From the IMG/VR virus record IMGVR_UViG_3300027896_000015: DNA of 64,000 nucleotides. One strand, given 5' to 3'. Within the stretch, counting starts at the first letter, position 1; every line of letters begins with the position of its first letter. Below, piece by piece: positions 11,625 through 64,000 of this stretch. This DNA is from an uncultured virus (IMG/VR IMGVR_UViG_3300027896_000015). Its lineage: Duplodnaviria > Heunggongvirae > Uroviricota > Caudoviricetes. The notes under the pieces were generated by a model. That model saw only the letters and a program-made list of their open reading frames with translations. It made no database searches and was not told where the DNA came from. Position numbers and translations under genes: made by a program.

Positions 11625-11652
11625 TGGAGTTTTGTGGCGGACGCGCCAGGAT

Positions 11653-35686: not shown

Positions 35687-35781
35687 CGGCTGCTACAAAG
35701 TAGCGCTAGAATGTGCTTGATTATCCGTTTTTGTTGTGATATCATTCTTGCATGGAAATCAGACATTTTAGGAGATAGCCA

Positions 35782-36390
35782 GTGAAAGTCAGAAAATTAG
35801 AAGAATCGATAGCGGTCGCTGACGACGTCCGTTCTCTTACCAAAACGGGCGCGGCAATGTCGCTGTCGGAAACGGTCAGGGACTTGGCGCAATCGTTGTC
35901 GGGAAAAGGCGTCAAGTGGGCGCTGTGCGGGGGCCTTGCGGTCGGAGTGCACGCCAATCCACGCGGGACTAGCGACGTCGACATCATTCTGGAGAATGAT
36001 GCCGCCATCGATGATGTCGTCCGTTTGTCGAACAGTTTGTTCAAAAAAAACAGGCCGCATGCCATGACCAACAATATGACAGGAGTCGAGGTGGAATTTG
36101 TAACCCCTGAACACGTCAACGTTTCTCCTGGTGTTGTGTCCACGGCGATTGAAACCGCTAAGTGGTCTCTGTTTGGAGGAATTGAGATACCCGTTGTCAC
36201 AAGATCGGGTTTGGTCGCGATGAAGCTCGAAAGGGGCAGCCGACAGGATTTGGCTGACATAGAGGCTGTGATCAGGTCTGGAAGCGTGGTCGACGTGTCT
36301 GCATACGGACTTTCGGAATCCAAGATGTCCGTCCTGCGCGAAATCGAGAACGATGTGCTGAACATCGGCGAAAAAACAAGGAAATCTTGA
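35782..36390 (+). CDS. Nucleotidyltransferase (AbiEii-like fold)
   Basis: 'ALCGGLAV..H..PRGTSDVDI', 'LVAMKL...QDLADI'. Confidence 0.75.
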   Translation: MKVRKLEESIAVADDVRSLTKTGAAMSLSETVRDLAQSLSGKGVKWALCGGLAVGVHANPRGTSDVDIILENDAAIDDVVRLSNSLFKKNRPHAMTNNMTGVEVEFVTPEHVNVSPGVVSTAIETAKWSLFGGIEIPVVTRSGLVAMKLERGSRQDLADIEAVIRSGSVVDVSAYGLSESKMSVLREIENDVLNIGEKTRKS

Positions 36391-36415
36391 TGGTTTTCGA
36401 GAACAATAACGCAAC

Positions 36416-36873
36416 GGGCCTGATTGGTTTCGACATGGGTGTCGGACAGGCTGGCTGCATGCCGAGGACTCCGGTTGGCCTCGTAAAACATCCGGAAGAA
36501 CGAATAAGTGCCAAAAACACAGGCACCACGGTGCTCGCGCGCCTGAACAAGACGGTCTTGGCCCGGCTTAACACGCCGGTCTACTCCGTCTCCGAAGTCG
36601 CGTTCGCTGTCTAAACAACAGCACACCCCCAAAACGGAGGGCCGCCGCAGCAACCTCCTGACGGGTCAAAGATCGCGGATGGCTGATCGGAAAGACGATC
36701 TGGCCGGGAAGGCGGGAGCGGTCAGCTGAAGCCCGCCTTGGAGCCTGGGGACATCACCAGGGCCGCTTCCTTGGCGCGGCGGGCAGCAATGCCTTGAAGC
36801 CGGGGAGAAGCATGTGGTAGCCATCTTCGAAGACCCTGTGGACGCGAGGTTCAACTCCTCGCCAGGTCCACCA
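36416..36873 (+). ncRNA. ssrA: tmRNA
   Basis: 5' GGGCCTGA..TTCGAC; 3' T-arm then CAGGTCC-ACCA; G3:U70 Ala determinant; tag ORF 36510-36614 after ATAAGT. Confidence 0.9.
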
Positions 36874-41932: not shown

Positions 41933-42691
41933 ATGCAAAAAGCCAGCGACCTCAAAAAAATCAGCGGAAAACAGGTCATAGGACGGACGCTGCTGTCGTA
42001 CCAGCTGTCCGACGACTTCGTCATGAACTTCGGAATGGGGTGCGTAGCCGGCGGCGACAACATGCTGCATCTGGCCACGGCCAACCACGGGAACGGATCG
42101 CTGATCACGTCGTTCTACCAGAAGGATCTGCCGGGCAACCCGATAGACCAGAAGAAGCTGAGCCAGATGCAGACGCGCGTCTCCATGGCGAAGAAATACT
42201 TCGACATCGCGATATGGCTGTTCGAGGACGACTCGGCGCCGCTGACGTCGCTGCCCGTCAATGTGCTGATTGGGTACATTAACGATGCGGCCAAGTACTT
42301 CGGACAGTACGCGAAGGATGTCTGCTTGGGCAACGAGGTTCTGGAGTACTTCGACATCGGCAAGTGCGCCAAGCTGATCGCCGCAGCCAAGCAGGCGTTC
42401 AAGAAGCGGGTCGGCATACATCTGAACGCCGGCACCGGATCGAAGGAAGCGTCCATCGTCAAGTCGTCAGGTGCGGACGCCTGGTATATCCAGTATCCAT
42501 TGTCGGGCAGCAATCCGCAGTCCCTGAGTGCTTTGGTTTCCCAGACCAACAGCGCGAAGGCGGCCTGTGCGTCGGCGGGCATTCCTGCGATTCCGCTTTG
42601 TGCATTTGAGTACGACCCGACGTCGTCGCACAAGCTGGGATCCCAGATCGTCAAAGCATGCCCGTATCTGATCGGCTACGGGAACGGCTGA
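41933..42691 (+). CDS. Hypothetical protein, possibly glycoside-hydrolase-like barrel
   Basis: AAGGAG RBS; 'LGNE' and 'AFEY' resemble clan GH-A catalytic motifs (weak). Confidence 0.45.
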   Translation: MQKASDLKKISGKQVIGRTLLSYQLSDDFVMNFGMGCVAGGDNMLHLATANHGNGSLITSFYQKDLPGNPIDQKKLSQMQTRVSMAKKYFDIAIWLFEDDSAPLTSLPVNVLIGYINDAAKYFGQYAKDVCLGNEVLEYFDIGKCAKLIAAAKQAFKKRVGIHLNAGTGSKEASIVKSSGADAWYIQYPLSGSNPQSLSALVSQTNSAKAACASAGIPAIPLCAFEYDPTSSHKLGSQIVKACPYLIGYGNG

Positions 42692-42699
42692 AAAAGATG

Positions 42700-42909
42700 T
42701 TGACTTCGTAAAAAAAATATGCCATGATGAAGGTTATGAACGATGGATCGGAGAAGAAGAGAATCAGGAACATGAAAAGACTATTGTCAAGTAGCATATC
42801 GTCGCTGTCCCTCTTAACGGAGGGGTTTGCGGCGGTTTGTACTTGACCGCCGATGAAGGCAGAAGCCTTCGAGAAATCAAGCCCCTCTGGAAACGGAGGG
42901 GCTTTTTTT
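42700..42909 (+). promoter_or_regulatory. Promoter + Leu/Ser/Ile leader peptide + attenuator
   Basis: TTGACT-N17-CATGAT; leader 42772-42846 MKRLLSSSISSLSLLTEGFAAVCT (in-frame ATG also at 42736); terminator 42879-42909. Confidence 0.85.
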
Positions 42910-42932
42910 GTTCTCTGAAAACAGAATAGCGA

Positions 42933-43008
42933 GCGCCCATAGCTCAATCGGCAGAGCAGCGGACCCATAATCCGCCGGTTCCCCGTTCAACCCGGGGTGG
43001 GCGCACCA
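42933..43008 (+). tRNA. tRNA CAT (probably Ile2)
   Basis: Cloverleaf; loop CCCATAA; CCA end; leader contains ATA. Confidence 0.85.
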
Positions 43009-43012
43009 TAAG

Positions 43013-43101
43013 GGAGAGATGCTGTAATTGGTATCAGGCCTGCCCCGAACGCAGGTGGGGTCTCAAAGCCCTTGGGAGTTCGATCCTCCCTCTCTCCTCC
43101 A
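43013..43101 (+). tRNA. tRNA-Ser(CGA)
   Basis: Loop CCCGAAC; long variable arm. Confidence 0.85.
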
Positions 43102-43131
43102 GTATATTTCCATATAGTGATTTGAATAGAC

Positions 43132-43218
43132 GCGAACGTGTCGGAAATTGGTATACGACTCCGACTCAGGATCGGAGGCCCTATGGGCTTGAGGGTTCGA
43201 CCCCCTCCGTTCGCACCA
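43132..43218 (+). tRNA. tRNA-Leu(CAG)
   Basis: Loop CTCAGGA; long variable arm. Confidence 0.9.
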
Positions 43219-43220
43219 AT

Positions 43221-43305
43221 GCGTCCGTGGCGGAACTGGAATACGCGCTAGCCCGAGGCGTTAGCCCCGCAAGGGATGGAGGTTCGACTCCTCTCGGACG
43301 CACCA
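43221..43305 (+). tRNA. tRNA-Leu(GAG)
   Basis: Loop CCGAGGC. Confidence 0.88.
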
Positions 43306-43309
43306 TTAA

Positions 43310-43399
43310 GGAAGGTGAACTGACAAGGCGTCAGGGTGGCCTGCTAAGCCAATCGCCCGCTCATTTGCGGGTGCGGGTCGGGACCGCCACCTTCCGCCA
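43310..43399 (+). tRNA. tRNA-Ser(GCT)
   Basis: Loop CTGCTAA; atypical T-loop. Confidence 0.82.
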
Positions 43400-43406
43400 T
43401 TTTCAT

Positions 43407-43493
43407 GGAGGAATGCCGGAATTGGCAAACGGGCTGGTCCTGAAAACCAGAGCCCTTCGGGGCGTGCGAGATCGTGGCTCGCTTCCTCCGCCA
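43407..43493 (+). tRNA. tRNA-Ser(TGA)
   Basis: Loop CCTGAAA; atypical T-loop. Confidence 0.85.
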
Positions 43494-43500
43494 TTTTAAT

Positions 43501-43588
43501 GCCGGCGTGGCGAAACTTTGGCATACGCAGCCTCCTCAAAAGGGGTCACCGAAAGGCACTGAGGGTTCGACTCCCTCCGCCGGCACCA
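43501..43588 (+). tRNA. tRNA-Leu(CAA)
   Basis: Loop CTCAAAA. Confidence 0.88.
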
Positions 43589-43694
43589 CATATGGACGAA
43601 CAGGTTCATGTCAATTTTTAATGAAGGAGATACGTGTGCCATTTGAGTATAAGAATATCAGCTACTAGGCACAAAACATAAAATGAGGCGATAA

Positions 43695-44420
43695 ATGGGC
43701 AGAAGAAGGACATGGACGGATGAACAGCTCATAGTGGCCGCAAAAGCCGCCATATCGGGATCTTCGGTTCTGCGAATGGTTGGTTTGCAATTGACTGGAT
43801 CAAATCGCACAACAGTAAAAAACGCCATTTTGAGGCTTGGAATTGACACGTCTCATTGGCTTGGAAAAGCCCACATGAGAGGAAAGCATCACACGTGGAG
43901 TAAGAAACTAACCTTGCATGATATGTTGACTCGTGATGCCCCAGTCAGGCGAGCATCATTTAAAAAGTTATTACTCCAAGATGGGATATTACGAAATGAG
44001 TGTTCTGAGTGTGGTCAGGTGTCGTTGTGGAACAATAAACCGTTAGTTATGGTACTAGACCACATCAATGGCGTGCACAACGACTACAAAATAAAAAACC
44101 TTCGCATGCTTTGTCCCAACTGCAACAGCCAACAAGATACATTTTCTGGTAGAAACTTAAGGGGAATTCCAGCCAAACACCCAAGAAAGAAAACGCCGAT
44201 TTTTTGTTGCAAATGTGCAAAGTTATTAACCAGAAAAAACAAAACGCGCATGTGTTTCTCTTGTTTTCAAAGGATTAAAAAAGAGAGTGGCACCAAAGGG
44301 AAACATATTCCAAACGACTTGTTGCTAAATATCAAAAATTTAGGAGTGATGCAAACATCTAGGAAATATGGCGTAAGTCACACAACAGTTGCCAGATGGA
44401 TGAATGCCGTCTCGGCATAA
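43695..44420 (+). CDS. HNH homing endonuclease inserted in the tRNA cluster
   Basis: 'CSECG..LDHING..NLRMLCPNCNS'; markedly AT-rich. Confidence 0.85.
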   Translation: MGRRRTWTDEQLIVAAKAAISGSSVLRMVGLQLTGSNRTTVKNAILRLGIDTSHWLGKAHMRGKHHTWSKKLTLHDMLTRDAPVRRASFKKLLLQDGILRNECSECGQVSLWNNKPLVMVLDHINGVHNDYKIKNLRMLCPNCNSQQDTFSGRNLRGIPAKHPRKKTPIFCCKCAKLLTRKNKTRMCFSCFQRIKKESGTKGKHIPNDLLLNIKNLGVMQTSRKYGVSHTTVARWMNAVSA

Positions 44421-44490
44421 TGGGTTGGAGAGACCATATTGTAATCTGCAAAATAGACACTACAAGTTTCACTTATTTCCTGATACCAAT

Positions 44491-44583
44491 GGACCAATGG
44501 CGGAACTGGATAACGCGCTTGCCCGGAGAGCAAGTTGACCCCGAAAGGTGGTCATGAAGGTTCAAGTCCTTCTTGGTCCGCCA
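44491..44583 (+). tRNA. tRNA-Ser(GGA)
   Basis: Loop CCGGAGA. Confidence 0.88.
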
Positions 44584-44585
44584 CC

Positions 44586-44672
44586 GCGGACGTAGCCGAA
44601 CTGGTAGCAGGCTGCCTCCCTAAAAGGGGCTGGAGAAATCCCGTGCGGGTTCGAATCCCGCCGTCCGCACCA
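44586..44672 (+). tRNA. tRNA-Leu(TAA)
   Basis: Loop CCTAAAA. Confidence 0.88.
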
Positions 44673-44675
44673 TTT

Positions 44676-44760
44676 GCCCGCATGGCGGAATCGACAGACG
44701 CGCAAGTTCTAGGCACTTGTGCCGAAAGGCGTGGAGGTTTAAATCCTCCTGCGGGCACCA
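44676..44760 (+). tRNA. tRNA-Leu(TAG)
   Basis: Loop TCTAGGC. Confidence 0.88.
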
Positions 44761-44805
44761 CATCTGGCGCAAGGGCTCGGTCGCCTGTCCGCGGAAATAT
44801 AGTTC

Positions 44806-46945: not shown

Positions 46946-47797
46946 ATGGACGCGCCAAAAAAGATGTCGCTGGGCGACCGCATGAAGCTGTACGAGGACG
47001 CCGAATCCAGGCGCATGCTGATGCCTCTGCTGCCGATATGCGCCAGGCTGGACGGCAAATGCTTCCACAAATTCACCAAAGGCATGGATACGCCGTACTC
47101 CGTTGCGTTTCGTGAAATGATGCTGGACGTCACCACGCACTTGGTCGACGAATCGTGCGCCAGCATCGGCTACACCCAGTCCGACGAGATCAGCCTGGTG
47201 TGGGCCGGTTCGGATTTCAAAAGCCAGACGTTTTTCGACGGGCGAATATCGAAGATTGTGTCGGTTCTTGCCGCCATGGCTTCCGTAAAATTCTTCGATT
47301 TGGTAGTCGATCGCATGCCCGAAAAAAGAAGCATGCTGCCTGTTTTCGACTGCAGGGTTTGGAACGTTCCGACGGAGGCCGAGGCCGTCAACACCTTGCT
47401 GTGGCGCGAGCGCGACGCATCTAAAAACAGCATCACTTCTGCGGCCTTGTGCTTTTACAGCCACAAAGAGATCGAAGGCAAGAACGGTTCGGACAAGCAA
47501 GAAATGCTGTTCAAAAAAGGCGTCAACTGGAACGACTATCCAGCGTTCTTCAGGCGCGGAACATACGTACAGCGCAGAAAAGTCGAGCGGAAGTTTCTTC
47601 CGAACGAGATCGAACGCCTGCCGGAAAAGCACGAGGCCAGAAGAAATCCTGATCTGATGGTCGTCAGAACCGACATCGTCGTCCTCGGCATGCCGCCGAT
47701 CGCGTCGATATCGAACGCGGCCGATGTTGTTTTTAGAGGATGCGATCCGATTCCGATATCGTGTGGCCCAGAACCATCACGTCAAGATGACGATTGA
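46946..47797 (+). CDS. Thg1-like 3'-5' nucleotidyltransferase
   Basis: 'RLDGKCFHKFT', 'YTQSDEISL', 'FDCR', 'WRERDA..NSI'. Confidence 0.9.
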   Translation: MDAPKKMSLGDRMKLYEDAESRRMLMPLLPICARLDGKCFHKFTKGMDTPYSVAFREMMLDVTTHLVDESCASIGYTQSDEISLVWAGSDFKSQTFFDGRISKIVSVLAAMASVKFFDLVVDRMPEKRSMLPVFDCRVWNVPTEAEAVNTLLWRERDASKNSITSAALCFYSHKEIEGKNGSDKQEMLFKKGVNWNDYPAFFRRGTYVQRRKVERKFLPNEIERLPEKHEARRNPDLMVVRTDIVVLGMPPIASISNAADVVFRGCDPIPISCGPEPSRQDDD

Positions 47798-54067: not shown

Positions 54068-54463
54068 ATGAAAGGATACAAGCATAACAAAAACGTCACC
54101 TATTCGTCGAAGTACCATGTCGTGTGGTGCTGCAAGTATCGCAGGAAAGTCCTCACTCCCGAGGTACAGTCCAGGCTGAAGAACATTGCGCTGGATGTCT
54201 GCCAGGAAAGGGGCGCCGAAGCGATATCCTTGGAGATCACGCCTGACTGCGTCCATCTTCTGGTCGAAATCGATCCTCAATACGGGATTCACAAGCTGAT
54301 CAAACAGATCAAAGGACGCTCCTCCAGACTGCTCAGGCAGGAATTCAAGCATCTGACCACCCGGCTGCCGTCCTTGTGGACTAATTCATACTTCGTTTCA
54401 GCCGTCGGATGTGTTGCAACATCGGCTATTAGGAAATACGTCGAGGAACAGAAACACATATGA
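54068..54463 (+). CDS. tnpA: Y1 transposase TnpA
   Basis: 'YHVVWCCKYRRKVL', 'IKGRSS', 'LWTNSYF', 'KYVEEQ'; HUH motif reads CVH. Confidence 0.92.
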   Translation: MKGYKHNKNVTYSSKYHVVWCCKYRRKVLTPEVQSRLKNIALDVCQERGAEAISLEITPDCVHLLVEIDPQYGIHKLIKQIKGRSSRLLRQEFKHLTTRLPSLWTNSYFVSAVGCVATSAIRKYVEEQKHI

Positions 54464-55518
54464 TCATCCGAACTCTAAAACTCAGGCTGACGTCCAAGCA
54501 GGAACGGGAGCTGGAGCAGTGGCTGTTCCATCTGACTGGAGTATGGAACTGGGCGGTCAAGAAAATCGGACACGACGCCAAGGACAAAATTTACCATTCT
54601 CCGAATGATTTTCAGAACTTGCTGGCGGAACACGGACAGAAGATGGACATGCCGTCCCATGTGCTGCAGGGAATGCTGGTTCAAGCCTACAACTCGTGGC
54701 AGAGATGCTTCAGTAAGCTGGCTAGGAAGCCCCATTTAAAAGGCATTCGCAACAAGCTTCGTTCTATCCCCTTTCCCGATCCGATCAGGCCTCCGAAGGA
54801 TGGCAGAATCGGCGTTCCTGGAATCGGAAAGGTTCGGTTCCACAAGCAGGAGCTTCCGGAAGCCAATATAAAATGCGGACGGATCGTCCACAAAACTTCT
54901 GGATGGTATTTACACCTTTGGTTGGACACAGAACATAAGTTTCCCGTCAAGCAGACGAACAAGGCCGTCGGCATCGATCCAGGCTTCAAGACTCTTCTTA
55001 CCTTGTCCGACGGCGTCAAGATCGAGAATCCCAGGGAACTTCAGAAAGGAGCCAGAAGGCTCGCGCAGGCGCAGAGAGGCGGCAAGAAGCTGGCCGCAAG
55101 GATTCACGAAAGGCAGGCGAACAGGCGAAACGACCGCAACCACAAGATCAGCCGAAAACTGGTTGAGGACTACGCCACGATCTGCTACTCGAACGACAAT
55201 TTCAAGGGAATGGCAAGGCTCCACGGAAAGTCGGTTTCCGAGGCCGCCTTGGGAAACCTGATCGGAATGCTGGCCTACAAGTGCCGTACAGGCGGTAGGA
55301 ATCTCGTTCCTGTCAGATCAGCTTACACCACCATGACCTGCTCGGCTTGCGGGTCCTTGACTGGACCTACAGGGCTTAGCGGGCTTGCGGTAAGGCGCTG
55401 GAGATGTTCCGCCTGTGGGGCGGACCATGACAGGGATATCAACTCTGCCCTGGTAGTCCTCAGCACCGGGCTCGGAACGAGCCGCGAGGGAACCAAGACC
55501 GCCCACGTGACGGCCTAG
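54460..55518 (+). CDS. tnpB: TnpB-family RNA-guided protein
   Basis: 'VGIDPG', Zn finger CSAC..CSAC, 'DRDINSA'. Confidence 0.9.
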   Translation: MIIRTLKLRLTSKQERELEQWLFHLTGVWNWAVKKIGHDAKDKIYHSPNDFQNLLAEHGQKMDMPSHVLQGMLVQAYNSWQRCFSKLARKPHLKGIRNKLRSIPFPDPIRPPKDGRIGVPGIGKVRFHKQELPEANIKCGRIVHKTSGWYLHLWLDTEHKFPVKQTNKAVGIDPGFKTLLTLSDGVKIENPRELQKGARRLAQAQRGGKKLAARIHERQANRRNDRNHKISRKLVEDYATICYSNDNFKGMARLHGKSVSEAALGNLIGMLAYKCRTGGRNLVPVRSAYTTMTCSACGSLTGPTGLSGLAVRRWRCSACGADHDRDINSALVVLSTGLGTSREGTKTAHVTA

Positions 55519-57670: not shown

Positions 57671-57856
57671 TTGACTTTGAAGGAACGATATGGCATCATT
57701 CAAGAAAGAGATATGGAAATGAACGCTATCTTGACATCTGGCAACATGTGGCGCGACCGAATGCCCATCGGGCATGCGGATCGCTAGCGGTCTGCAAGGA
57801 TGGCGAGAAGCGAAGGCGTGCCCGGAAATCCGAATGGATTACGGGCTTTTGTTTTT
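57671..57856 (+). promoter_or_regulatory. Promoter + Met/Trp leader peptide + attenuator
   Basis: TTGACT-N17-CATCAT; leader 57713-57787 MEMNAILTSGNMWRDRMPIGHADR; terminator 57820-57856. Confidence 0.75.
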
Positions 57857-57897
57857 AATGTGGCTGGATGTTCGTCAGCCCATAACGGAGGATAGCA

Positions 57898-58062
57898 ATG
57901 AACAGGGATAGTTTCGCTAAGTTCAGTCAACCGATTGTTCGCTGCATAAGATGTCGTAAACGCAAGGTCAGTAAAGATGGGCTCGTATGGTGTAAAGCGT
58001 GCAGAGAGAAAATGAAGGCGGTGGCCGAACGAGTTAATCGTATGCAGTTGGATGTAGATTGA
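57898..58062 (+). CDS. 54-aa Zn-finger protein (not in the ORF track)
   Basis: GGAGG RBS; 'CIRC...WCKAC'. Confidence 0.6.
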   Translation: MNRDSFAKFSQPIVRCIRCRKRKVSKDGLVWCKACREKMKAVAERVNRMQLDVD

Positions 58063-58068
58063 TGAAAT

Positions 58069-58144
58069 AGGAGTGTGGTTTAACTGGCAAAATCCGTGCC
58101 TCCAAAGCACGTGGATGAGCGTTCGAATCGCTCCACTCCTGCCA
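58069..58144 (+). tRNA. tRNA-Trp(CCA)
   Basis: Loop CTCCAAA; CCA end. Confidence 0.9.
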
Positions 58145-58148
58145 ATTT

Positions 58149-58233
58149 CCCGGCGTGCGAGTAATGGTATCTCAGGAGCTTCATAAGCTCCCGCCGTAAG
58201 GCCTTGGATGTTCAAGTCATCTCGCCGGGACCA
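58149..58233 (+). tRNA. tRNA-Met(CAT) with long variable arm
   Basis: Loop TTCATAA; CCA end. Confidence 0.8.
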
Positions 58234-58685: not shown

Positions 58686-58880
58686 TTGACTAATGCAGGA
58701 TTTTGTGGCATGATTCAGGTACAAGTAATGCAAGACAAGGATATCAGTCATGATTGCATCTGACAGGCGGAGAGATCGTGATGCCGAGCCCGACGGGGCT
58801 TCCGGCCGATCGTGATCCGCAGAGATGCGTTCGGCAGAAGGGAAGACCCAGCGGGCGAAAGCTTGCTGGGTTTTTTGTTT
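58686..58880 (+). promoter_or_regulatory. Promoter + Arg/Asp leader peptide + attenuator
   Basis: TTGACT-N17-CATGAT; leader 58750-58815 MIASDRRRDRDAEPDGASGRS; terminator 58845-58880. Confidence 0.85.
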
Positions 58881-58887
58881 TCAAGAT

Positions 58888-58962
58888 GCGCCTGTAGCTC
58901 AAAGGAAGAGTGCCTCGCTTCGAACGAGGAAGTTGGGAGTTTAAGTCTCTCCAGGCGCGCCA
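58888..58962 (+). tRNA. tRNA-Arg(TCG)
   Basis: Loop CTTCGAA. Confidence 0.88.
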
Positions 58963-58971
58963 AAATATATG

Positions 58972-59046
58972 GTCCCTGTGGCGTAACGGACAGCGCAAAT
59001 CTCTCCTAAAGATTAGGTCCTGGTTCAATTCCAGGCAGGGACACCA
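58972..59046 (+). tRNA. tRNA-Arg(CCT)
   Basis: Loop CTCCTAA. Confidence 0.9.
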
Positions 59047-59049
59047 AAT

Positions 59050-59126
59050 GCGTGCGTCGCCTAGCAGCAATGGCACTGGCTTGTCGAGCCAGCATACCGC
59101 AGGTGCGAGTCCTGTCGCACGCGCCA
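59050..59126 (+). tRNA. tRNA-Asp(GTC)
   Basis: Loop TTGTCGA. Confidence 0.85.
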
Positions 59127-59137
59127 ACTTGATTGCT

Positions 59138-59214
59138 GTCGCCGTGGCCTAACGGACGGGCGCCGCCCTGCGAAGGCGGATATCGTGCAGGTTCGACTCC
59201 TGTCGGCGACGCCA
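59138..59214 (+). tRNA. tRNA-Arg(GCG)
   Basis: Loop CTGCGAA. Confidence 0.85.
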
Positions 59215-59219
59215 GCTTT

Positions 59220-59302
59220 GCGGGTGTAGCGGAGCGGTTTTCTAAACCGTGCATTGTACCGTAATTGGACGCATGGGGGTTCAACTCCCTCCTCCCGCAC
59301 CA
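59220..59302 (+). tRNA. Atypical tRNA-Arg(TCT), D-arm missing
   Basis: Acceptor stem, loop TTTCTAA, long extra arm, T-arm, ACCA. Confidence 0.65.
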
Positions 59303-61010: not shown

Positions 61011-61093
61011 CGGTCGTCAAAAGCCCTTGACTTTAGTCCGCCAATGTGCTATTCTGGCGTCAGAAACAGTGAAGAAAGGATCGGTTCTCAAGC

Positions 61094-61276
61094 ATGATCA
61101 GGAAGGCATACCGGAAGCTGGGCAAAATCGGATGGGGGCAGTTTCTGTTCGTGGCCGCCGCCGCGCTGATCGTCGGGGTCATCATCGGCCTGTCTTGGAA
61201 GCTGATCCAGATTCATACTTGCGGCGTCGAGGTCAGGGAGAACGGGATTACGTCCGTCGTTCATGCCGCGAAGTGA
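61094..61276 (+). CDS. Small membrane protein
   Basis: Single hydrophobic helix. Confidence 0.5.
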   Translation: MIRKAYRKLGKIGWGQFLFVAAAALIVGVIIGLSWKLIQIHTCGVEVRENGITSVVHAAK

Positions 61277-61282
61277 TTTTTG

Positions 61283-61446
61283 AAGGTTTTGTCGCCTCGA
61301 TTAAGGAATAAGGGCGGTAGGAGAGAACAATGAGATTGCAGCGCAACAATAGCCAAAATGCACCGAGGCCTGACGGCCTTCGGGCGGGCTGATTGTTGCC
61401 CCGTTCGGACACCCTCAGGTCGGAAGGCCTGGGGGTTTTTGAGTTT
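61283..61446 (+). promoter_or_regulatory. Promoter + Asn/Gln leader peptide + attenuator
   Basis: AAGG-N19-GAATA; AGGAG RBS; leader 61330-61392 MRLQRNNSQNAPRPDGLRAG; terminator 61411-61440. Confidence 0.82.
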
Positions 61447-61451
61447 AAAAT

Positions 61452-61539
61452 ACCGGAGTGGAGGAGAACTGATATTCCCCCAGGTTGTTACCCTGGAGCC
61501 GCAAGGTCATTGCTGGTTTAATCCCAGCCTCCGGTGCCA
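61452..61539 (+). tRNA. tRNA-Asn(GTT) with long variable arm
   Basis: Loop TTGTTAC. Confidence 0.8.
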
Positions 61540-61550
61540 TTTTGTTAATT

Positions 61551-61624
61551 TGGTCCTTGGTGTATCGGCTGCACGCGAGTCCCTGAAATTCTAGGACTGG
61601 GTCCGACTCCCGGAGGACCAACCA
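61551..61624 (+). tRNA. tRNA-Gln(CTG)
   Basis: Loop CCCTGAA; weak anticodon stem. Confidence 0.75.
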
Positions 61625-61627
61625 TCT

Positions 61628-61702
61628 AGGCCCATGGGGTATAGGTTGCCCATCTGCCTTTGAAGCAGAAAGAGGTGGTCCGATTCCATCTGGGCCTGCC
61701 CA
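61628..61702 (+). tRNA. tRNA-Gln(TTG)
   Basis: Loop CTTTGAA; 3' end GCCCA. Confidence 0.8.
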
Positions 61703-62385: not shown

Positions 62386-62542
62386 TTTTTTCTCTTGCGT
62401 TCCGCGGAAGAATTGTTGTACAATGATCGTCTGCACCATGTTAGGTGCAGTGACGTTGAAATATCAGTACAAATGCGGCCAAGGTTGCGCAAGGTTAGTT
62501 GTACTACGGTGTGCCGGACGACTGTCTGGAAACTTTAAGCGC

Positions 62543-63077: not shown

Positions 63078-64000
63078 ATGATCATGATCAAATCTCCTGA
63101 CGGACGAAAGCCGATCTTCTCGTGGTGCCCCGACGCGGACGACGGGACCATCAGCCAGATGACGGTCATATCCTCCCTGCCGTTCGTCGATCACTGCGCC
63201 CTGATGCCGGACGCCCATGTCGGCATGATGATGCCGATAGGCGGAGTCGTCGCGTGCGACGGAGTCGTGGTTCCGAATTTCGTCGGAATCGATATTGGCT
63301 GCGGCGTAAAGGCCCTTCAGACCTGCATCAAGGAGGACGAACTGTCCGACCAGGGCCGGCAGGATATCCTTGCTGAGCTGGCGAAGTCAGTCCCCGTCGG
63401 ATTCGCGCACAACGACGCGGCAAGAATTGCCCGAATCATGACGTTCGACGGGCCGGTTGTGAGATACGTCTCCGGCTTGATCTCAAATGAGCCTCGGCAC
63501 AATCCTGTCGGAGACGTCGCCGCCAGCGTGCAGTCGCAGATCGGCACTCTCGGAGGCGGGAACCATTTCCTTGAGTTCCAGCGCGACGAGTTCGGAAGAG
63601 TATGGATCATGATCCATTCCGGATCGCGCAACATCGGAAAGAAGATCGGCGACTATTTCAACGGCGTCGCTTCCGACTTGAACGCAAGGAACTTCGCGTC
63701 GGTTCCCAGGGACATTCCGTTTCTTCCGACCGATTCCGAAGAGGGCAGGTCGTACCTGGAATGGATGCGTTTCGCCCTTGAGTTCGCGAAGTTCAACCGC
63801 TGCGAGATCATGAACGACGCCGTCAGGGTTCTGGAGACGGTTACTGGGAAGAAGTATTACCGGCTTGAAGAGCAGTTCGTTGACATCGACATCCACCACA
63901 ATTACGCGTCCCTGGAGACTCATTTTGGCAAGGAAGTATGGGTCCACAGGAAAGGGGCCACCTTGGCTTCCAAGGACACGGTCGGCGTCATCCCAGGGAG
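63078..64000 (+). CDS. rtcB: RtcB RNA ligase (3'-truncated; not in the ORF track)
   Basis: 'MPDAH.G..MPIGGV', 'DIGCG', 'GTLGGGNHFLE', 'IHSGSR', 'HHNYA', 'HRKGAT'. Confidence 0.93.
   Translation, partial: MIMIKSPDGRKPIFSWCPDADDGTISQMTVISSLPFVDHCALMPDAHVGMMMPIGGVVACDGVVVPNFVGIDIGCGVKALQTCIKEDELSDQGRQDILAELAKSVPVGFAHNDAARIARIMTFDGPVVRYVSGLISNEPRHNPVGDVAASVQSQIGTLGGGNHFLEFQRDEFGRVWIMIHSGSRNIGKKIGDYFNGVASDLNARNFASVPRDIPFLPTDSEEGRSYLEWMRFALEFAKFNRCEIMNDAVRVLETVTGKKYYRLEEQFVDIDIHHNYASLETHFGKEVWVHRKGATLASKDTVGVIPG

Follow-up and report, generated by a model that had tools for sequence, protein, structure and literature searches.

How does a phage that carries its own tRNA genes control when they are transcribed? 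To our knowledge this has hardly been addressed, and it is raised directly by a 64,000-nt stretch of DNA (the window, as we call it at its full length) from an uncultured giant phage in a freshwater sample (IMG/VR record IMGVR_UViG_3300027896_000015), where a ten-tRNA array lies behind a promoter, a short open reading frame (ORF) and a strong intrinsic terminator. A first-pass annotation had read this ORF, leader 1, as a leader peptide whose codons name the tRNAs encoded behind it, and the whole arrangement as a transcription attenuator. Every part of that proposal that can be computed held, with further support from a promoter 72 nt upstream of the leader-1 ATG and from three more codon-matched leaders in the window. 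We regard it as likely that the leaders are ribosome-stalling transcription attenuators, each opening its tRNA cluster when any of the cluster's charged tRNAs is scarce.

A codon checklist in front of a ten-tRNA array

Twelve consecutive codons of leader 1 (42781-42816) read CTA TTG TCA AGT AGC ATA TCG TCG CTG TCC CTC TTA, exactly as first annotated. Five distinct codons for Leu, five for Ser (TCG occurring twice) and a single ATA make up the run, and the array that follows, cluster 1, holds five Leu isoacceptors, four Ser isoacceptors and a tRNA with a CAT anticodon, if a sub-threshold tRNA-Ser(gct) is counted. The complete match to ten tRNAs claimed at first stands for the anticodons, all ten of which find their codon in the run, but ARAGORN with default settings calls only nine tRNA genes within 42933-44760 (cat, cga, cag, gag, tga, caa, gga, taa and tag). 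Ser(gct), the one it leaves out, occupies a tRNA-sized gap and has a 4-bp T stem, an atypical T loop, a long variable arm and a GCCA end. The surplus codons of the checklist are AGT, a G:U wobble partner of GCT, and the second TCG, while CTT and TCT, the only Leu and Ser codons absent from it, have no dedicated tRNA in the array.

The first-pass claim of a match at the level of isoacceptors is well above chance. In a six-frame scan of 12-codon windows (128,000 positions), the checklist alone combined 12 of 12 readable codons with Watson-Crick matches to 10 of 10 anticodons, and the second-best non-overlapping window covered five. When synonymous codons were resampled with the leader-1 peptide held fixed, draws weighted by phage codon usage covered all ten anticodons in 2 of 100,000 cases, and draws with uniform usage in 52 of 100,000. 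Three of the listed codons, CTA, TTA and AGT, are rare in the long ORFs of the phage, with 1.5, 1.6 and 3.5 occurrences per thousand codons.

The CAT tRNA had been predicted, from the lone ATA, to be a lysidine-modified tRNA-Ile2 and not tRNA-Met, and its acceptor stem agrees with that identity. According to a survey of 234 genomes (Silva et al. 2006, PMC1635315), G3 or A3 with C70 or T70 points to tRNA-Ile(CAT), in which C4-G69 and C5-G68 are also frequent, and tRNA-Met and tRNA-fMet usually carry C3-G70. The stem of the gene at 42933-43008 consists of G1 C2 G3 C4 C5 C6 A7 with T66 G67 G68 G69 C70 G71 C72; its G3-C70, C4-G69 and C5-G68 pairs are the Ile2 markers of that survey, and its G1-C72 pair argues against an initiator tRNA. 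The CAT tRNA of a second cluster, described below, has C3-G70, the Met-type pair. Each leader agrees with the type of CAT tRNA behind it, as leader 1 contains ATA and no internal ATG, and leader 2 three internal ATG codons and no ATA. At the level of sequence, these features support the prediction of the cluster-1 CAT tRNA as a tRNA-Ile2. Its anticodon loop has C33 in place of U33, and a blastn search with this tRNA against E. coli genomes gave no match.

Only 22 nt lie between the end of the terminator T-run and the first tRNA, which leaves no space for a separate promoter, so the tRNAs depend on read-through. Further along, the array is interrupted by an HNH homing-endonuclease gene, beyond which lie three distal tRNAs. 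A consensus scan of the plus strand over 43589-44490 found no promoter-like site and no strong terminator-like site, and solely on that basis the distal tRNAs would be co-transcribed with the rest of the array across the insert. At all three of the IMG/VR loci with homologues of this HNH gene, the homologue sits between tRNA genes, and a tblastn match in a 430-kb phage with 33 tRNAs falls between tRNA-Thr and tRNA-Ser; the family seems to home into tRNA arrays.

One design in four tRNA units

All 18 ARAGORN tRNAs of the window fall in four clusters, and each cluster has the same layout of promoter, 20-24-codon ORF, strong intrinsic terminator and tRNAs, repeated four times within 19 kb (Table 1). 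The four terminator stems range from -15.3 to -22.2 kcal/mol and all are followed by T-runs. The promoters, at 42700, 57671, 58686 and 61027, share the form TTGACT, a 17-nt spacer with TG, and a CATGAT-like hexamer. This pattern matches five sites in 64 kb, namely the four leaders exactly and one single-mismatch site before an ORF-tmRNA unit; it was built from the four leaders, so that only its absence elsewhere is informative.

The one feature that changes among the units in step with the downstream tRNAs is the codon content of the leader, which follows the Trp and Met tRNAs in unit 2 (weakly), the Arg and Asp tRNAs in unit 3, and the Asn and Gln tRNAs in unit 4. Besides its ATG codons, leader 2 contains one TGG. 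Leader 3 has a seven-codon Asp/Arg run at 58762-58782, with GAC and CGA further on, and its AGA codon matches the UCU found by Rfam alignment in the anticodon loop of an aberrant tRNA-like gene at 59220-59299. Leader 4 has CAG, AAC, AAT, CAA and AAT inside seven codons. For leader 3, only two windows among the 128,000 positions cover all tRNAs of its cluster, and its codon run is one of them; the same holds for leader 4. Ranked by own-cluster codons among 576 short ORFs (ATG-started, 15-40 codons, both strands), leaders 1 to 4 come 1st, 5th, 5th and 1st. Random ORFs of the same length (23 codons for leader 1) contained a readable codon for every cluster tRNA in 703, 122,794, 13,304 and 170,684 of 1,000,000 cases for leaders 1 to 4, and multiplying the four rates gives a probability of approximately 2e-7 that every leader covers its whole tRNA set.

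Some of the genes in these units are unusual in themselves. The UCU tRNA-like gene of unit 3 has almost no D-arm and a 21-nt insert, and ARAGORN at a relaxed threshold gives it a different fold, as Asn(att). Class II-like stem-loop variable arms are present in the cluster-2 CAT tRNA (85 nt) and in the tRNA-Asn at 61452-61539 (88 nt). Between the leader-2 terminator and tRNA-Trp lies a 54-aa ORF with two CxxC pairs (57898-58062), whose matches to double zinc ribbons are weak and below Pfam cut-offs; it would share control with the unit-2 tRNAs.

Table 1. Coordinates of the leader, terminator and tRNA features and of neighbouring genes in the window.
Feature	Position	Strand	Remarks
tmRNA	36416-36873		
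Promoter P1	42700-42728	+	TTGACT, 17-nt spacer with TG, CATGAT; 9/12 consensus matches
Leader ORF 1	42772-42846	+	ATG at 42772, 24 codons, TGA at 42844-42846
Codon checklist	42781-42816	+	codons 4-15 of leader 1; Watson-Crick codons for all ten anticodons
Inner 1:2 hairpin	42808-42825	+	42808-42814 (segment 1) with 42819-42825 (segment 2 core), 7 bp
Segment 2, antiterminator strand	42818-42829	+	pairs with 42878-42889
Intrinsic terminator 1 (segments 3 and 4)	42879-42911	+	11-bp stem, GAAA loop, seven T
tRNA (CAT anticodon), read as tRNA-Ile2	42933-43008	+	ARAGORN; matches ATA codon
tRNA-Ser(cga)	43013-43101	+	ARAGORN
tRNA-Leu(cag)	43132-43218	+	ARAGORN
tRNA-Leu(gag)	43221-43305	+	ARAGORN
tRNA-Ser(gct), sub-threshold	43310-43399	+	ARAGORN only with thresholds lowered to 90%
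tRNA-Ser(tga)	43407-43493	+	
tRNA-Leu(caa)	43501-43588	+	
HNH homing-endonuclease gene, interrupting the array	43695-44420	+	phrog_10822, E 1.9e-39; Pfam HNH, 0.003
tRNA-Ser(gga), tRNA-Leu(taa), tRNA-Leu(tag), distal part of array	44491-44760	+	codons TCC, TTA, CTA in leader 1
Thg1-like gene	46946-47797		Pfam
Unit 2	57671-58233	+	promoter 57671-57699, leader ORF 57713-57787, terminator 57820-57846 and T-run
Unit 2 genes		+	zinc-ribbon ORF 57898-58062, tRNA-Trp(cca) 58069-58144, tRNA(CAT) 58149-58233
Unit 3	58686-59299	+	promoter 58686-58714, leader ORF 58750-58815, terminator 58844-58873 and T-run
Unit 3 tRNAs		+	Arg(tcg), Arg(cct), Asp(gtc), Arg(gcg), and aberrant tRNA-like gene 59220-59299
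Unit 4	61027-61702	+	promoter 61027-61055, small ORF 61094-61276, leader ORF 61330-61392
Unit 4 terminator and tRNAs		+	terminator 61411-61436 and T-run; Asn(gtt), Gln(ctg), Gln(ttg)
RtcB gene	63078-63998		Pfam; start 63078 onward

The predicted switch and its alternatives

The leader-1 region has a minimum-free-energy fold of -74.2 kcal/mol (z = -6.95 against shuffled versions), in which most checklist codons are buried in a long hairpin. The 7-bp hairpin TCCCTCT/GGAGGGG, proposed as the pairing of segments 1 and 2, is present in this fold as the tip of the larger hairpin, whose outer stem joins approximately 42787-42807 to 42830-42848. The proposed 2:3 pairing was also recovered: its 12 bp, two of them G:U, give -20.9 kcal/mol, and none of 1000 dinucleotide shuffles was as stable. 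For the 3:4 terminator, which had been placed at 42879-42909, we found an 11-bp stem (42879-42889 with 42894-42904, -21.3 kcal/mol), the earlier end coordinate taking in the T-run at 42903-42909. A 10-nt word at 42816-42825 recurs in the 3′ arm of the terminator (3 of 2000 shuffles), which sets segments 2 and 4 in competition for segment 3, the hallmark of an attenuator. The equivalent 2:3 duplex of leader 3 reaches -24.7 kcal/mol and was matched by 1 of 1000 shuffles, and that of leader 4 is marginal (-13.4 kcal/mol, 53 of 1000).

Ribosome stalling was modelled by equilibrium folding, with a stretch the size of a ribosome kept out of base pairing as the A site was placed on each codon in turn. 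In leader 1, the modelled probability of the full terminator fell from 0.96 to 0.10-0.56 when the mask stood at A-site codons 3-8, and in this full-length setting leader 1 was the only leader predicted to switch. For transcripts cut before the 3′ arm of the terminator, the predicted sequestration of the 5′ arm was higher with the mask at cognate codons than at other codons in leader 1 (0.92 versus 0.64), leader 3 (0.61 versus 0.31) and leader 4 (0.75 versus 0.36), and this result of the model was stable for 3′ footprint edges of 9-15 nt.

A strong terminator approximately 150 nt past the promoter and 22 nt before the first tRNA would be senseless unless termination were conditional. Computation gives the ORF with its promoter and terminator, the pairings that compete, the match of codons to anticodons with the low odds of its arising by chance, and the recurrence of the layout in four units; we infer that the leader is translated, that stalling shifts its fold and that termination is conditional, and the biological trigger is likewise inferred. 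Transcription would start at 42700-42728, with ribosomes translating the 24-codon leader while RNA polymerase proceeds. If all listed codons were decoded promptly, segment 1 would pair with segment 2 within the larger hairpin that buries the checklist, the terminator (42879-42904 and the T-run) would form, and polymerase would stop 22 nt ahead of the first tRNA. If the charged tRNA for any listed codon were scarce, the ribosome would stall in the checklist, melting or covering the 1:2 structure, and the freed segment 2 (42818-42829) would pair with 42878-42889, allowing read-through into the array, the HNH gene and the three distal tRNAs. As the products would be the very tRNAs under test, the outcome would be negative feedback and supply on demand, an OR gate over ten isoacceptors, and the three other clusters would follow the same design with their own codon sets. 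The trigger may be a shortage or cleavage of host tRNAs in infection, which would fit the nearby RtcB, Thg1-like, tmRNA and AbiEii-like genes.

We read leader 1 as feedback on tRNA supply resolved to single isoacceptors. Its extension to the whole window is a form of homeostasis, in which each leader is the codon checklist of its own tRNAs, the loss of any one isoacceptor, of host or phage, would turn on the cluster concerned and no other, and the fresh tRNAs would turn it off; this we find quite possible, while stopping a little short of favouring it. Such a loss might come, for example, from a host anticodon nuclease or from the phage's own attack on host tRNAs.

A number of results weigh against attenuation by stalled ribosomes. 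Neither ARAGORN at default settings nor the tRNA model of Rfam, searched up to E<=1, finds Ser(gct). Synonymous resampling was not significant for leader 3 (52,260 of 100,000) or leader 4 (32,123 of 100,000). Unit 2 is the weakest case, with a 2:3 duplex matched by 228 of 1000 shuffles, no distinctive codon run and no modelled switch in cut transcripts (sequestration of 0.37 at cognate and 0.34 at other codons). With the full terminator in place, leaders 2-4 are modelled as remaining terminated at nearly all mask positions. In leader 1 itself, a ribosome halted at TCC, CTC or TTA would lie over most of segment 2 (modelled sequestration of 0.75, 0.88 and 0.46); these last three checklist codons are too near segment 2, and the twelve codons are therefore not equally well placed. 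In addition, the cut leader-1 transcript is predicted to form the full antiterminator without any ribosome (1.00), so that equilibrium folding cannot separate the untranslated from the stalled state and a kinetic argument is needed; in classical attenuators, the decision between terminator and antiterminator is kinetic. Energies of pairing with the anti-Shine-Dalgarno sequence are -2.9, -0.9, -5.2 and -8.1 kcal/mol for leaders 1 to 4, of which the value for leader 1 equals the median of all ATGs (-2.9) as against a long-ORF median of -5.6, with leader 2 weaker still. Finally, no relative with the element was found in any database searched, and covariation of codons and tRNAs is seen only among the four units inside this genome. 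A listing of sequencing runs gave no RNA run for the locus and only one run in all, probably that of the source sample, and the tRNA arrays of five other phage records, one with 33 tRNAs, had no convincing analogous leader, from which it follows that the design is not universal.

Among the competing explanations, the one that fares best, though we consider it improbable, is that a translated, codon-matched leader works by another route, for example by stalling that alters the processing or stability of the tRNA precursor, or by acting chiefly on protein genes within the units (the HNH gene in unit 1, the zinc-ribbon ORF in unit 2) and less on tRNA output. In its favour, the terminator persists in the equilibrium folds of leaders 2-4 at nearly all mask positions, the 2:3 duplex of leader 2 is not significant, and units 1 and 2 have protein genes past their terminators. 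It is opposed by the significant 2:3 duplexes of leaders 1 and 3 (0 and 1 per 1000 shuffles), by the 10-nt repeat that ties segment 2 to the 3′ arm of the terminator, by the coincidence of antiterminator-freeing mask positions with cognate codons, and by units 3 and 4, which have only tRNAs past the terminator.

Somewhat less probable still in our view is chance acting on ordinary features, with short ORFs that are not translated sensors and with hairpins and terminators that are constitutive or leaky. The weak Shine-Dalgarno matches of leaders 1 and 2 and the lack of relatives for a conservation test would fit this, as would a leader-1 peptide that resembles, by eye, the Leu/Ser-rich stretch of a signal peptide, and Ser and Leu codons are favoured by pyrimidine-rich hairpin arms. 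Such an account has to set aside the codon statistics, including the joint probability for all four leaders, and a promoter followed by an unconditional strong terminator approximately 150 nt on would be pointless, yet the arrangement is present four times.

The trp and his attenuators respond to amino-acid starvation through charged tRNA, and the leaders could likewise sense the supply of Leu, Ser, Ile and other amino acids and not single isoacceptors. Attenuators that read charged tRNA respond to amino-acid starvation too, and leaders 3 and 4 have no significant synonymous choice. That in leader 1, by contrast, covers ten anticodons, a coverage reached in only 2 of 100,000 resamples, and includes the rare CTA, TTA and AGT; moreover, extra tRNA would not cure amino-acid starvation. 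We judge amino-acid sensing to be quite unlikely. Least probable of all, and in our opinion very unlikely, is an account that needs no ribosome, in which tRNA anticodons pair with the codon list on an RNA that is not translated, in the manner of a T-box or a tRNA sponge. The complementarity of the codons to the anticodons of the products, which follows by construction, is in its favour. Against it, each of the four leaders has its codons in frame, between an ATG and a stop, the minimum-free-energy fold places most of the listed codons inside a stem, and neither a known Rfam cis-regulatory family at leader 1 nor a T-box covariance-model match, even at E<=1 across 42650-44800, was found.

Relatives, neighbouring genes and wider meaning

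Searches for relatives of the locus returned distant or partial matches. GenBank phages gave 60-90% matches to single tRNAs only and no relative of the locus. Six window proteins searched against IMG/VR hit only distant records (Thg1 54%, RtcB 45%, HNH 31-41%), with no match for the leader-adjacent ORF or DnaB. A metagenome scan yielded 18 loci, among them one contig identical to the window and thus not independent, which runs on for ~13.6 kb past the window's end and may bring further units; the others, distant Thg1 loci (35-58% identical), did not carry this cluster. GTDB contigs gave nothing for the leader-adjacent ORF, and for Thg1 five loci in Myxococcota metagenome-assembled genomes (49-54% identity) with no tRNAs nearby, a faint hint as to origin or host. 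Rejected candidates include a Trp-rich short ORF in the 33-tRNA phage, one of several weak leader candidates in other phages, which lies inside coding sequence and has no terminator, and a PyrR binding site, which was the best Rfam match at leader 1 (28.2 bits against a gathering score of 54).

The window looks like a segment of a huge-phage genome, with Pfam matches to DnaB, a ClpB-like ATPase, several DNA methylases, TnpB, a Thg1-like enzyme and RtcB. The Thg1-like and RtcB genes, both of tRNA-repair type, lie on either side of the tRNA region. A gene of the TnpB/IS605 OrfB type, whose product has Cas12f1-like TNB and OrfB_IS605 domains, is located at 54460-55518, past tRNA cluster 1 and ahead of clusters 2-4. 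Upstream, at 35717-36873, a fifth copy of the leader-type promoter (1 mismatch) is followed by a 202-aa ORF and then directly by the phage tmRNA. That ORF encodes a nucleotidyltransferase domain resembling AbiEii (Pfam, 1.8e-5). Enzymes of the AbiEii and MenT kinds modify the acceptor ends of tRNAs, so the phage may act on tRNAs itself. A minus-strand ORF overlapping leader 1 (42651-42968) matched no Pfam family. Separately, a 13-nt motif containing TATAAT occurs exactly at 11652, 49828, 58236 and 61714, and with 1 mismatch at 62413 (0.02 expected). Two of its copies stand directly 3′ of tRNA clusters 2 and 4, ahead of the next ORF, and the motif probably marks promoters of a second class, at which transcription starts anew past each tRNA unit.

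Leader-peptide attenuators are well known from enterobacterial amino-acid operons (thr, ilvGMEDA, his, leu, trp and pheA), some of which mix codons of several amino acids. Leader 1 shares with them a promoter-proximal short ORF of regulatory codons, alternative 1:2, 2:3 and 3:4 hairpins, an intrinsic terminator and, by prediction, a read-out by stalling, and it likewise mixes codons for several amino acids. Unlike them, the phage leaders precede tRNA genes and not genes for biosynthetic enzymes, so that the product would be the sensed molecule; leader 1 has each synonymous codon about once, in place of one codon repeated; and the leaders are phage-borne, in four copies within 19 kb that differ in their codon sets. 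Closer in target is the pheST leader, a Phe-codon attenuator before the phenylalanyl-tRNA synthetase genes, which also applies leader-peptide attenuation to a gene of the translation apparatus but is chromosomal, controls a synthetase and senses one amino acid. T-box riboswitches similarly sense tRNA status through codon-anticodon recognition and act by a terminator/antiterminator switch, but they bind uncharged tRNA directly, through a single specifier codon and without translation. A literature search, with most subscription journals outside its scope, found no paper on leader-peptide or attenuator control of tRNA genes, and the words "attenuat", "leader", "terminator" and "promoter" are absent from a key paper on phage tRNAs (PMC10264068). 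The class of mechanism is classical, and the tRNA target and checklist logic are, as far as could be found, unpublished.

The role of phage tRNA genes has been debated for decades, initially as compensation for codon usage and more recently as replacement of tRNAs that host defences have destroyed (PMC10264068 and PMC11555353). This phage has tRNAs for codons that are rare in its own long ORFs, and cluster 1 amounts to a full decoding set for Leu and Ser, which looks more like a wholesale replacement of host tRNAs than like codon-usage compensation. If the attenuator reading is true, the phage would gauge its decoding capacity codon by codon and make tRNAs only on need, classic attenuation would gain a new class of target, genes whose own product is being sensed, and single-codon swaps in a leader should shift which tRNA shortage is sensed. 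If, further, each leader is the checklist of its own tRNAs, the leaders would also be a guide to what aberrant tRNAs decode where gene finders overlook or mislabel them, such as a CAT tRNA as Ile2 or Met, the sub-threshold Ser-GCT and the D-arm-poor Arg-UCU, and would thereby offer a sequence-only route to the function of odd phage tRNAs. Each leader would be a compact natural sensor of tRNA availability at the level of the isoacceptor.

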